Assembly: GCF_030013595.1 (NCBI RefSeq)
Contig: NZ_CP122768.1
Direction: 5' to 3' (one strand)
DNA length: 64,000 bases
DNA from: Escherichia coli
GTDB lineage: Bacteria > Pseudomonadota > Gammaproteobacteria > Enterobacterales > Enterobacteriaceae
Under the pieces are notes generated by a model. That model had not been told where the DNA came from. It made no database searches and was given only the letters and a program-made list of their open reading frames with translations. The translations under genes and the position numbers were made by a program. Of this stretch, positions 16,653 through 23,446 are shown one piece after another; within the stretch, counting starts at the first letter, position 1, and each line of letters opens with the position of its first letter.

Positions 16653-16666
16653 CTTTGCTGTATATC

Positions 16667-16709
16667 GAGCAATGCCATTATGTGCATAAAATTGGCATTG
16701 CTCTTTTTT
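16667..16709 (+). terminator. Rho-independent terminator after treA (11-bp stem gagcaatgcca / tggcattgctc followed by T6)
   Basis: Hairpin plus U-tract seen directly 15 nt after the treA stop. Confidence 0.6.
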
Positions 16710-16934
16710 CGCCACGAAATGCCCCCCATTCTACGGTCTATGCCTTTATTTTCTTTTATCAGAGAAGATTTTAATTTTATTTTATCAATTTGTTAATCAT
16801 TACACCTCTATTTATATTTTTCGCCACTCCGCCATTCTCCCTGACAATTTTCTTGTGGAACAAAGTGTTATTTAAGCAACAAGCAAATCATTCTGTCTCT
16901 TTAGACAAATTTTGACATCAAACATGATTTTTTT

Positions 16935-16958
16935 CGATATATATGTAAATATATAGCG
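16935..16958. promoter_or_regulatory. ModE-type operator candidate: CGATATATA-tgtaaa-TATATAGCG, 25-48 bp upstream of the start codon of the ABC binding-protein gene
   Basis: Near-perfect inverted repeat seen directly; fits the ModE consensus as I recall it (CGnTATATA-N6-TATATAnCG). The downstream operon contains a ModD-like gene. Confidence 0.5.
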
Positions 16959-16982
16959 GTTTTTATTATCAGGATATAACTT

Positions 16983-19749: not shown

Positions 19750-20550
19750 ATGCTCATTGACGATATTGATTTTGCAGACCTTTACCTTCAGCAACTCAGG
19801 CTGGCCCATCGCACAGAAAAAACGCCGGATCACTGGGATCAACGGGCGGAAAATTGCGCCTCGCCTACGGACAGCTACCTGCAACAACTGATCGCTAAAA
19901 TTGACCTACAAGGCGCTCAGACCTTATTCGATATGGGCTGCGGACCGGGTACCGTATCGCTGGCGCTGGCTGACAAACTCACGACGATTTATGGCGTTGA
20001 TTACAGTCAGGGGATGCTGAAGGTTGCCGCCCGTCGCGCCGCCGCGCTAAAGGCAGACAATGTCCACTGGATCCAGCGCGCCTGGGAAGAGGACTGGAGT
20101 GACCTGCCACGCTGCGATATTGCCGTGGCTTCCCGCTCCACTCTGGTGGCTGATATGCGCCAGGCAATGAGCAAACTGAATAATCAGGCACGGCTTCGCG
20201 TCTATACGACTCATCTGGTCAGCACCTCGTTCGTCTCTCCAGCCATTCAGCGGGCGGCTGGTCGGGAAGTGATCGAATTACCCAACTATATCTTTGCGCT
20301 CAACGTCCTGTATCAGATGGGAATTTATGCTCACGTTGATTTTATCCGTGGACAAAATTGCCAACAGGATAACAGCACCTGGGAACGTTTTGAGCAGAAC
20401 GTCAGCTGGAGTCTGGGCGCGCTTAACGACGATGAGCGTGAGCGGTTATATCGCTGGTATCAACAACAAGATGCTCGTGCCCTCGCCCCTGCCAGCCGCG
20501 ACTGGGCGCTCATCTGGTGGGATAGCGTACCGCAAGAGGCACTGCGATGA
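19750..20550 (+). CDS. Class I SAM-dependent methyltransferase, 266 aa
   Basis: Motif I LFDMGCGPGTVS (GxGxG) followed by an acidic residue in VDYS; embedded in the transporter operon; SD aagga upstream. Confidence 0.7.
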   Translation: MLIDDIDFADLYLQQLRLAHRTEKTPDHWDQRAENCASPTDSYLQQLIAKIDLQGAQTLFDMGCGPGTVSLALADKLTTIYGVDYSQGMLKVAARRAAALKADNVHWIQRAWEEDWSDLPRCDIAVASRSTLVADMRQAMSKLNNQARLRVYTTHLVSTSFVSPAIQRAAGREVIELPNYIFALNVLYQMGIYAHVDFIRGQNCQQDNSTWERFEQNVSWSLGALNDDERERLYRWYQQQDARALAPASRDWALIWWDSVPQEALR

Positions 20551-21401
20551 TTTTCCTTTCTCAGGCACAAATCGATGCGTTACTTCTGGAAGATATCCAG
20601 GGCGGTGACCTGACCACGCGAGCATTAAATATTGGACACCAGCATGGCTATATAGAGTTTTTTCACCGTCAGGGCGGCTGCGTCAGCGGAATTTCTGTCG
20701 CGTGTAAGATGTTAACTACGCTGGGATTAACTATTGATGACGCGGTCAGCGACGGTTCACAAGCGAACGCGGGTCAGCGGCTAATCCGTGCGCAGGGTAA
20801 TGCCGCAGCACTTCATCAGGGATGGAAGGCAGTCCAGAATGTGCTGGAGTGGAGTTGCGGTGTTTCTGATTATCTCGCTCAAATGCTGGCGTTACTTCGT
20901 GAACGTTACCCTGATGGCAATATCGCCTGCACCCGAAAAGCAATTCCGGGCACCCGCTTACTGGCCTCGCAGGCAATTCTGGCTGCCGGAGGACTGATTC
21001 ATCGTGCCGGATGTGCGGAAACCATATTATTGTTTGCCAACCACCGCCATTTTCTTCATGACAATCAGGACTGGTCAGGCGCAATCAATCAGTTACGTCG
21101 CCACGCACCCGAGAAGAAAATAGTTGTTGAAGCCGACACGCCGAAAGAGGCAATCGCCGCGTTACGCGCGCAACCAGACGTACTTCAGCTCGACAAATTT
21201 AATCCGCAACAGGCAACTGAAATTGCGCAAATAGCACCGTCGCTGGCTCCTCACTGCACGCTGGCTCTGACCGGCGGAATTAATCTGACAACACTCAAAA
21301 ATTACCTCGACTGCGGCATTCGCCTTTTTATTACCTCCGCGCCTTATTACGCGACACCAGCTGACATTAAAGTCAGTCTGCAACCCGCAGCCTCTATTTA
21401 A
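20547..21401 (+). CDS. modD: ModD-like protein (quinolinate/nicotinate-nucleotide pyrophosphorylase fold), 284 aa
   Basis: QPRTase-type motif CTRKAIPGTRLL and overall size typical of ModD; start overlaps the methyltransferase stop (ATGA). Symbol refers to the family, not to a verified orthologue. Confidence 0.65.
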   Translation: MIFLSQAQIDALLLEDIQGGDLTTRALNIGHQHGYIEFFHRQGGCVSGISVACKMLTTLGLTIDDAVSDGSQANAGQRLIRAQGNAAALHQGWKAVQNVLEWSCGVSDYLAQMLALLRERYPDGNIACTRKAIPGTRLLASQAILAAGGLIHRAGCAETILLFANHRHFLHDNQDWSGAINQLRRHAPEKKIVVEADTPKEAIAALRAQPDVLQLDKFNPQQATEIAQIAPSLAPHCTLALTGGINLTTLKNYLDCGIRLFITSAPYYATPADIKVSLQPAASI

Positions 21402-21426
21402 TTCTTTGTTAAACGGAATTTATTCT

Positions 21427-23397
21427 ATGAGACTCAAAAAACGTTATCTCTGCACAGCATTATCACTTGCCTTTACCCAGCAGGCCGTAGCGGCTCAGGA
21501 GAGTGACACGCTGACCGTATGGTCCAGTCCGGTATCATCGACGACGACCACCGTTCTCGATCAACCCACCATGAAGGCCCTGGATAAACAGAATGTCGCT
21601 CAGGCATTAAGTGTCGTCCCCGGCGTGGTGCTGCAAAAGTCAGGCAGCCGCAACGAAGAACAGGTAAAAGTTCGTGGCTTTGATAGTCGGCAGGTGCCGG
21701 TCTATTTCGACGGTGTGCCCATTTATGTTCCCTATGACGGCAACCTCGATCTGGCGCGGATTCTGACCAACAATCTGGGGGCAGTCGAAGTTTCCAAAGG
21801 GTATTCGTCGCTGCTTCAGGGGCCTAATCAGATGGGCGGAGCCATTAATATCACCACCCAGAAGCCAACAAAACCTCTGGAAGCAAATCTGGGATATCGC
21901 CAGGGATGGAGCCGTAGCTAGGACAATGCCTACGATATGCATGCTTCATTTGCCGCCAGCAGCGATCTGGGGTATTTGCAAGTCAGCGGTAGCCAGCTAA
22001 AGCAGGATTTTCTCGGCCTGCCGCATGGTGTAAATAATGATATTGCAGGCAAACACGGTAAGATGATTAATTCATCGGCTGATGATAAACGCGGCATTGT
22101 GAAGCTCGGTTTTACACCACGCGAAAACGATGAATACACATTGACTTACATTAAGCAGGATGGTGAAAAAGATAACCCGCCATACAGTGGAAATAGTGGT
22201 CAAAAATCACGCTACTGGCAGTGGCCAGAGTATGACAAAGAAAGTTTTTATTATCAGGGAACGACCCAACTAAACGATCGTTTTACCCTGAAAAGTCGGC
22301 TGTATCGCGACACCTTTGAAAATACGCTGATGATGTACAACTCGCTGGCTGATTTAAAAAATAAAAAAGGCAGCTACAGCCATTATTCCGATTACAGCGA
22401 CGGTGCCGGGTTACAACTGGCAGCCGATGTGCGTGAAAACGATCTGCTGTCGTTTGCCGTTAACTGGAAAGATGACGTACACCGGGAAAAAGGTGCGCCG
22501 CACGCCGCTTACGATCGCTATGAAGATCGTACCTGGTCGCTCGCCAGTGAATATCAATGGGCTGCTGCCGATAATGTCGACGTCGTGGCTGGAATCAGCT
22601 ATGACTGGCGCGATAGCGTAGAAGCGAAAAAACATGAGAAAGATGGAAGCATCACCCATTATGACGACAACAATCAGTCAGCTTTTAACTGGCAGGTGAT
22701 GGGGAAATACCACTTTGCCAATGAAGACACGCTGGCGCTTTCGTACTATGACCGCACACGCTTTCCGACGCTGAAAGAACGCTATACCACGTCCAAACCT
22801 GCGTATAACCAGATAGCGATTGTTAACCCGCAGCTCAAACCGGAACGCGCGCGCGGGGTGGATTTAACCTGGAATGGTGCCTTCACGCACGACTGGGGGT
22901 TTGAGGTCAGCGTTTACTATAACCGGGTGAGTGATGCCATCCTCTCGCACAATATCGATGCCGATACCATTCAAAATCAGAACAGCGGCACGGTGGATTA
23001 CAGCGGTCTGGATGCCGGTATTAAGGGGAAAATCAGCAATATACTGGATGTAGGATTGAGCTACGCCCTGATCCACGCTGATGCCAAACGCAAAGACATC
23101 GGCAAGATAACCGATCTGCCAACGCAGACAATGACCGCATGGATGACTCTCAAACCGTGGGAGCCGTTAAACGTAACGCTGTCGGAAGAGGCGCGTTCCT
23201 CCAGCTACAGCAACAGTGACGGTTCACAAAAAGCCGCCGGTTTTGCGGTGACCCACATTCGAGCCGATTACACCTTAGGTCATGGCTTCAGCGTCAATGC
23301 GTCGGTCAATAACCTGTTTGATACCAAATATGCCTACAGTGAAGGGTTTATTGAAGAAGGTCGCAATTTCTGGGCAGGTATCGAGTATACGTTCTGA
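21427..23397 (+). pseudogene. TonB-dependent outer-membrane receptor interrupted by an in-frame amber codon at 21919-21921 (plug domain 21427..21918; barrel 21922..23397)
   Basis: Signal peptide MRLKKRYLCTALSLAFTQQAVAAQE, TonB-box-like DTLTVWS, plug region, then same-frame continuation after TAG into a long beta-barrel ending ...WAGIEYTF (terminal aromatic). Both halves are in the same reading frame. Confidence 0.7.
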
Positions 23398-23446
23398 TGT
23401 GAAAGCGGATAGCGGCATCTGTATCGCTATCCGCCTTATGAAAATC

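Follow-up and report, generated by a model that had tools for sequence, protein, structure and literature searches.

The stretch of Escherichia coli DNA analyzed here (64,000 nt of contig NZ_CP122768.1, assembly GCF_030013595.1; hereafter the window) carries, between treA and ymgE, six genes encoding a periplasmic binding protein, a FecCD-type permease and an ATPase of the type II ATP-binding cassette (ABC) importer class, a class I S-adenosylmethionine (SAM)-dependent methyltransferase, the ModD protein and a TonB-dependent receptor, PrrA. We propose that this cluster is probably a ModE-repressed, TonB-dependent system for the acquisition of molybdenum or tungsten and a member of the ModE regulon. 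An earlier note on this DNA had suggested uptake responsive to these two metals, and this reading, as opposed to one based on iron, is supported by an operator conserved across genera, by a likeness to the MolBC-A importer and by the molybdenum and tungsten contexts in which relatives of the receptor are found. In this strain, at most the inner-membrane half of the system would be able to work, because the receptor gene carries a nonsense codon.

Regarding regulation, the palindrome CGATATATATGTAAATATATAGCG upstream of the first gene matches the 24-nt core pattern CGNTATATA-N6-TATATANCG without a mismatch, at all 16 specified positions, and is the single ModE-type site in the 64 kb of the window (16935-16958), against 0.02 expected. 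Compared with the full E. coli ModE consensus, ATCGNTATATA-N6-TATATANCGAT (PMC545781), it agrees at 20 of the 22 specified positions. The box ends 25 bp upstream of the ATG of the binding-protein gene, leaving no room for a promoter downstream of it, and its center lies 36.5 bp upstream of the start codon. A TTGAnn hexamer precedes it in most orthologous loci, 17 nt upstream in the Escherichia, Citrobacter and Raoultella examples, as does the candidate -35 hexamer TTGACA in the window; a simple consensus scan for promoters and terminators did no better than on shuffled sequences and did not call the TTGACA promoter. Since the operator overlaps the likely -10 and start region, binding of ModE should repress the operon, as at modA.

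The box is conserved well beyond Escherichia. A scan with a ModD alignment, taking one genome per species, gave 79 loci, the six-gene clusters among them. In 46 of 48 such six-gene loci, distributed over about 15 genera, the 300 bp upstream of the binding-protein gene contain a box with at least 13 of 16 matching positions; 919 kb of flanking DNA contain one other match. Moreover, 23 of the 48 loci (Proteus, Morganella, Providencia, Pectobacterium and one Serratia) have another box ahead of the receptor gene, and ModE boxes are also present in five-gene clusters of Shewanella, Edwardsiella tarda and two metagenome contigs. The ModE-type operator that the earlier note had placed ahead of the operon is thus confirmed, both by the perfect match of its core and by its retention in the orthologous loci. 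One of the two six-gene loci devoid of an upstream box is that of Citrobacter braakii ATCC 51113 (L008 in our numbering of loci, ~6100-6520), where the upstream region is unrelated to its counterpart in other Citrobacter and the flank lacks treA, which suggests a rearrangement.

The importer shows its closest characterized similarity to a molybdate system. Against all solved structures, the permease matches best HI1471 (MolB) of Haemophilus influenzae (223 bits), followed by FhuB (175 bits), HmuU (168 bits) and BtuC (146 bits), and the best single-domain solved match of the ATPase is HI1470 (MolC, 126 bits). The binding protein belongs to Peripla_BP_2 (Pfam), and its counterparts in orthologous loci are 44-86% identical to it. 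It begins with MSLTRRRFTQ and, in 18 orthologues, the twin arginines are invariant or nearly so, which fits export by the twin-arginine translocation (Tat) pathway. When a profile of 18 binding proteins was compared with solved structures, the matches were 4PAG (3e-43), 4OVK (3e-16) and then MolA (HI_1472, 7e-14), this third match being weak and partial with 160 residues aligned; 4PAG and 4OVK are uncharacterized structural-genomics proteins. Likewise, with the AlphaFold model of the protein (predicted local distance difference test score, pLDDT, of 86), Foldseek ranked 4PAG at the top (template modeling score, TM, of 0.80) and MolA fifth (TM 0.66-0.69), in agreement with the family assignment but without pointing to a ligand. 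MolA is the first characterized fold neighbor, YiuA-type iron-binding proteins being among the others, and, where similarity to siderophore receptors and binding proteins is concerned, the scores against NCBIfam equivalogs all fall far below their cut-offs.

The receptor provides a further line of evidence. The intact copy of O157:H7 (656 aa) has a Plug domain (Pfam, E 7e-21) and a barrel (TonB_dep_Rec, E 9e-33), and a TonB box, DTLTVWS, follows the signal peptide. No close relative was found among characterized siderophore receptors, CirA (the best, E 7e-20) and BtuB being matched at E 1e-16 to 1e-20. In Shewanella (57-65% identity) and E. tarda (68%), the receptor is encoded with a binding protein, a permease, an ATPase and a methyltransferase; the first gene in both and, in Shewanella, the receptor gene as well are preceded by perfect or near-perfect ModE boxes. 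As these clusters lack modD, the conserved core consists of five genes, with modD as an optional insert. In Pseudomonas aeruginosa, a full-length orthologue of the receptor (45% identity) occurs in more than 2,000 assemblies. The palindrome CGTTATGTA-AAAAAA-TGCATAACG lies 15 bp upstream of its start codon, such a site being obtained in none of 200 shuffles of the locus, and the gene is followed by a small Oxidored_molyb-like open reading frame (ORF), moaA and narIJHG. An Oxidored_molyb-like ORF of 171-182 aa directly follows the receptor gene both in P. aeruginosa (L088, 9977-10525, overlapping it) and in a metagenome contig of 70% GC content (L094, 8152-8667), the two ORFs being 31% identical.

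At E ≤1e-30, an exhaustive profile search assigned 605 clusters (50% identity) to the receptor family. Among four sampled relatives, two belong to five-gene clusters with ModE-like boxes, a third (490 bits) is encoded within a tungstate-type ABC operon of TupB/TupA-like genes that also includes a regulator with a ModE N-terminal domain, and the fourth adjoins a MoCoBD_2 protein. The TupA/TupB-like operon and its ModE-domain regulator link the receptor family to group-6 oxyanions, and every informative genomic association of the receptor family and of ModD is with molybdenum or tungsten genes. A broader proposal, to which we would give even chances, is that PrrA belongs, with its relatives, to a widespread family of gamma-proteobacterial outer-membrane transporters, TonB-dependent and dedicated to molybdenum or tungsten, which have so far been mis-annotated as iron receptors. 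Such a family would extend over Enterobacterales, Shewanella and P. aeruginosa, with more than 600 clusters at 50% identity, and in Enterobacterales it would feed a MolBC-like importer whose methyltransferase and ModD act on the cargo.

The same data bear on the function under which the locus has been annotated, i.e., the uptake of an iron complex (siderophore or xenosiderophore), the ModE-like palindrome being then incidental. In RefSeq, the first gene bears the name "iron ABC transporter substrate-binding protein", and the cluster has been labeled as putative iron uptake (PMC1890555; PMC12928451); the remote matches of the receptor to CirA and BtuB and the YiuA-type proteins among the fold neighbors of the binding protein could be read in the same sense. 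However, the genera have no Fur box matching at 13 or more of 19 positions in common within the 250 bp ahead of the operon, whereas the ModE box is kept almost everywhere with essentially no background, and the informative associations of ModD and of the receptor family lead to molybdenum and tungsten genes. The iron-siderophore reading used by annotators is therefore poorly supported, and we regard it as very improbable. Neither the operon nor any of six orthologous loci gave a match in Rfam to a molybdenum cofactor (Moco) riboswitch, a B12 riboswitch or any further RNA family.

ModD has, to our knowledge, gone unexplained since the 1990s. The protein of the window scores 501 bits against TIGR01334 (cut-off 178.85) and contains the Pfam domains QRPTase_N and QRPTase_C. 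Its homologues are found elsewhere, also in distant phyla, in modABC operons whose binding proteins exceed the curated ModA threshold (for example in Gilliamella, Cedecea, Desulfurobacteriaceae, Chlorobiaceae and Alcaligenaceae), and ModE boxes are present in Cedecea and, in Edwardsiella, upstream of a methyltransferase-ModD pair. In the Edwardsiella loci (L023, L039 and L048, ~9100-14400; L092), the five-gene cluster is devoid of modD and the ModE-boxed methyltransferase-ModD pair stands separately elsewhere, followed by a ThiF/MoeB-like E1 enzyme, a small uncharacterized ORF and an EamA-type permease. Aligned with the quinolinate phosphoribosyltransferase of Mycobacterium tuberculosis, ModD keeps T129-R130-K131, H152-R153, E195, D197, D216 and T242-G243-G244, while Lys172 of the enzyme is replaced by an invariant Phe163 and Arg105 by Lys94. 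In the M. tuberculosis enzyme, the TRK, HR, E and D residues are catalytic and the replaced lysine binds the substrate. With the catalytic residues kept and this lysine changed to phenylalanine, ModD looks like an active phosphoribosyltransferase that would use a different acid substrate.

The methyltransferase is always linked to the type II importer. Its sequence matches Methyltransf_25/31 (Pfam) and its AlphaFold model (pLDDT 87) resembles, with TM values of ~0.5, generic small-molecule class I methyltransferases in Foldseek. No clue to its substrate came from NCBIfam, Pfam, a PDB sequence search or Foldseek, all matches being generic class I ones, and no similarity specific to arsenic, tellurium or selenium methyltransferases was seen beyond these. 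This enzyme, for which simple molybdate import offers no role, gives some ground to the idea that ModE controls the operon but that the operon supplies a need other than molybdenum or tungsten when molybdenum is short, such as the import of a substitute cofactor or metal or the detoxification of an oxyanion analogue by a metalloid-type methyltransferase. ModE regulons elsewhere do hold alternative, molybdenum-independent systems (title of PMC12327845). Nevertheless, the importer is closest to MolBC, relatives of the receptor lie inside tungstate or molybdate transporter operons and the searches with the methyltransferase gave only generic class I matches, which makes this idea improbable.

A stronger contender shares the same control by ModE and differs by the cargo, which would be an organic complex of molybdenum or tungsten, either a catecholate or other metallophore carrying molybdate or a pterin or molybdenum-cofactor species scavenged from the gut, with the methyltransferase and ModD processing the ligand after import. 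An organic complex is favored by the architecture of the transport proteins, as the combination of a TonB-dependent receptor, a cluster-A binding protein and a type II importer is that of chelate, haem and B12 uptake. It is also favored by the co-transcription of two cytoplasmic small-molecule enzymes, namely a methyltransferase whose model resembles small-molecule methyltransferases and ModD, which retains the presumed catalytic residues of a quinolinate phosphoribosyltransferase with one presumed substrate-binding lysine changed to phenylalanine. The low affinity of MolA for free molybdate, which it binds only at ~100 uM (PMC3928620, citing Tirado-Lee et al. 2011), goes in the same direction. 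By contrast, the free oxyanion is favored by the receptor relatives, which are coupled to TupABC/ModABC-type oxyanion transporters or, as in P. aeruginosa, stand alone beside molybdenum-enzyme genes with no chelate importer. ModD is moreover dispensable for the cluster, being absent in Shewanella and E. tarda, and elsewhere it accompanies plain modABC; finally, the locus contains no genes for metallophore biosynthesis or export. We consider an organic cargo unlikely on balance.

Returning to the acquisition of molybdenum or tungsten as the preferred function, we infer from sequence that ModE represses the operon, what the substrate is and in which order the steps follow one another. When molybdate is plentiful, ModE-molybdate would bind the promoter-overlapping operator and switch the operon off, and when molybdate is scarce the operon would be transcribed as one translationally coupled unit. 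PrrA would then capture the substrate, most likely molybdate or tungstate itself or a small complex thereof, at the cell surface and move it to the periplasm at the expense of TonB energy. The Tat-exported binding protein would hand it over to the MolBC-like type II importer for delivery to the cytoplasm, where the methyltransferase and ModD may then act on the cargo, on its ligand or on some metabolite linked to it.

Several points weigh against this proposal. The similarity between the binding protein and MolA is weak and partial, the closest solved relative, 4PAG, being uncharacterized, and with an affinity for molybdate of ~100 uM (PMC3928620), even the true substrate of the MolA precedent is debatable. 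Porins are considered to be the way in which molybdate passes the outer membrane (PMC8264917), which leaves the need for a TonB-dependent receptor unexplained, and the methyltransferase is without a role if a plain oxyanion is imported. Sporadic gene decay and absence from ~60% of E. coli show, furthermore, that the operon is dispensable. Finally, each step of the mechanism is so far a deduction from genes and sites.

The history of the locus departs from what had been assumed. According to the earlier note, the treA-ymgE interval of K-12 holds only ycgY and the cluster was inserted into it. The former holds for the K-12-type genomes compared, in which ycgY (minus strand) is alone between treA and ymgE; the latter is contradicted by synteny. 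Homology between the two forms reaches as far as 16594, within the 3' end of treA, and sets in again at 23374, 24 nt before the receptor stop, and K-12-type genomes retain as a relic the final 24 nt of the receptor gene (...VEYTF-stop) with the hairpin beside ymgE (23374-23446 of the window; 2501-2573 of L087). The order treA-cluster-ymgE-ycgR is that of E. albertii and many Citrobacter species, and the cluster also lies beside treA in Raoultella, Enterobacter and Intestinirhabdus. On account of the synteny in E. albertii and Citrobacter and of the 24-nt relic, the cluster is ancestral at this locus in Escherichia and Citrobacter, the ycgY form being a derived replacement and the cluster having been lost in K-12-type strains.

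The same six-gene order was found in 15 genera (Escherichia, Citrobacter, Raoultella, Klebsiella indica, Enterobacter, Serratia, Yokenella, Symbiopectobacterium, Proteus, Morganella, Providencia, Pectobacterium, Erwinia, Pantoea and Affinibrenneria). The cluster lies on the chromosome and, at a query coverage of at least 80%, is present in 2,139 of 5,426 complete E. coli genomes (~39%), including O157:H7 and extraintestinal pathogenic E. coli (ExPEC). Individual copies are damaged. In the window, the receptor frame, which starts at ATG 21427, is cut by an in-frame TAG (21919-21921) where the intact O157:H7 copy and the nearest genome have CAG, so that the gene is a pseudogene here; of the six genes described by the earlier note, the content stands but the sixth gene is not intact. 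The nearest genome has, instead of this TAG, a +1 frameshift in its receptor gene, O157:H7 an internal stop in the methyltransferase gene and E. albertii NBRC 107761 an internal stop in the receptor gene. The methyltransferase of the window measures 266 aa instead of 270, residues KMAE of the N-terminal helix region being missing through an in-frame deletion of 12 nt; the nearest genome has this deletion too, whereas five further E. coli genomes and all of the other genera do not. General decay of the operon in E. coli was considered and ruled out, as all six genes are intact in each of five further E. coli genomes spread over the identity range; decay is thus sporadic. In O157:H7 strain Z570 (L002), the neighbors of the cluster are damaged as well, treA by a frameshift and ycgR by an IS3-family element that splits it.

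Regarding the organization of the cluster (Table 1), the six ORFs are all on the plus strand and tightly packed, and the RefSeq annotation of a 99.9%-identical genome (a pig isolate) has these six genes too, in agreement with the co-directional operon and the gene content that had been described. Three junctions had been described as start/stop overlaps, and TAATG, GTGA and ATGA are all read in the sequence, the two remaining gaps measuring 9 and 25 nt. Domain searches likewise recovered the expected families, i.e., Peripla_BP_2, FecCD/BtuC, ABC ATPase, Methyltransf_25/31, TIGR01334 ModD and Plug with TonB_dep_Rec. Upstream, treA ends at 16652 and has its own terminator hairpin, which is predicted to insulate the operon from treA.

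Table 1. Features of the treA-ymgE interval, in window coordinates.
Feature	Position	Strand	Basis or remark
treA intrinsic terminator, stem GAGCAATGCCA/TGGCATTGCTC then T6	16667..16709	+	sequence read directly
TTGACA, candidate -35 hexamer	16912..16917	+	17 nt upstream of the ModE box; sequence reading
Putative ModE operator, CGATATATA-TGTAAA-TATATAGCG	16935..16958	+	palindrome CGATATATATGTAAATATATAGCG; consensus match and conservation
Periplasmic substrate-binding protein, 340 aa	16983..18005	+	TRRRF twin-arginine motif; cluster-A Peripla_BP_2 fold
FecCD-type permease (type II ABC importer)	18005..18985	+	MolB (HI1471) is the best solved-structure match
ABC ATPase, GTG start overlapping the permease stop	18982..19740	+	MolC (HI1470) is the best single-domain solved match
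Class I SAM-dependent methyltransferase, historical name yc73, 266 aa	19750..20550	+	
modD, quinolinate-phosphoribosyltransferase-fold protein	20547..21401	+	TIGR01334
TonB-dependent receptor gene prrA, 656 codons, pseudogene in the window	21427..23397	+	TonB box DTLTVWS
In-frame TAG in place of the receptor CAG (Gln165)	21919..21921	+	alignment with the intact O157:H7 copy
Hairpin GCGGATAGCG-N10-CGCTATCCGC between the convergent receptor gene and ymgE	23405..23434		also kept in K-12-type genomes
Segment differing between cluster-bearing and K-12-type (ycgY) genomes	16595..23373		homology comparison

Elsewhere in the window, a perfect inverted repeat of 716 nt occupies 37664-38379 and 62331-63046, with a match to Rfam STnc490 in each arm (37679-37802, plus strand; 62908-63031, minus strand). 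The two arms are probably copies of one insertion sequence bracketing ~24 kb, and they could mediate its inversion. Rfam also returned a match to the C0299 small RNA (112 bits) at 40140-40218 on the minus strand.

The locus itself is not new. In uropathogenic strain CFT073, the cluster was named prrA-modD-yc73-fepC (Guyer et al. 1998, as reported in PMC1890555); it corresponds to O-island 55, or S-loop 83, of O157:H7 (ECs1693-1699), described in the literature as variable between lineages, and to the genomic region GR9 (ymgE..treA) of ExPEC and avian pathogenic strains, "possibly mediating iron uptake" (PMC12928451). The earlier note did not recognize the operon as a characterized system: it has indeed been named, and assumed to serve iron, and we found in the literature no functional study of it and no paper tying it to ModE, molybdenum or tungsten, although RegPrecise-type regulon collections may list the genes under ModE, given that a study of Shewanella regulons names a ModE regulon without listing its genes. 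Its functional reassignment from iron to molybdenum or tungsten, with a receptor family reaching P. aeruginosa, thus appears to be new.

If this reassignment is correct, the PrrA family would be the first energized outer-membrane route for a group-6 oxyanion, the long-standing iron-uptake label of O-island 55 would be corrected and ModD would gain a tractable genetic context. It is through molybdoenzymes, in the respiration of nitrate, formate, dimethyl sulfoxide (DMSO) and trimethylamine N-oxide (TMAO), that Enterobacteriaceae expand in the inflamed gut. Tungstate serves as an experimental poison of such enzymes (work cited within PMC8264917). The view of molybdenum nutrition, nutritional immunity and tungstate sensitivity would consequently change, with a candidate route in ~39% of E. 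coli (O157:H7 and ExPEC among them), Proteus, Morganella, Providencia, Citrobacter and P. aeruginosa.

Compared with known systems, the cluster resembles TonB-dependent uptake systems of the BtuFCD, FhuDBC and FecBCDE type in its general architecture and in the families to which its four transport proteins belong; unlike these, it has a ModE box, no Fur box and no B12 or Moco riboswitch, and its receptor is only remotely related to characterized ones. The TupABC system is connected to it through the receptor relative found in a TupA/TupB-like operon with a ModE-domain regulator, whereas the E. coli cluster uses a FecCD-type importer. With ModABC and ModE of E. coli K-12 it has in common an operator that follows the same consensus and overlaps the promoter region and, presumably, the same purpose of molybdate supply. 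ModABC, however, belongs to the type I importers, its binding protein has the ModA fold and it lacks an outer-membrane component of its own, while the cluster described here combines a type II importer, a TonB-dependent receptor and two enzymes. MolB2C2-A of H. influenzae (HI1470/HI1471/HI1472) is the closest characterized system. According to PMC3928620 (citing Tirado-Lee et al. 2011), the region HI1469-HI1475 comprises modA, molABC, modD and a second small ABC system, molABC adjoining modA and modD, binding molybdate and tungstate and acting as a secondary, low-affinity molybdate transporter. The Haemophilus cluster differs by having a second, ModA-type transporter and neither a TonB-dependent receptor nor a methyltransferase, and its MolA is only distantly related to the binding protein of E. 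coli; yet both consist of a FecCD-type permease, an ATPase and a cluster-A binding protein, and in both modD is adjacent.

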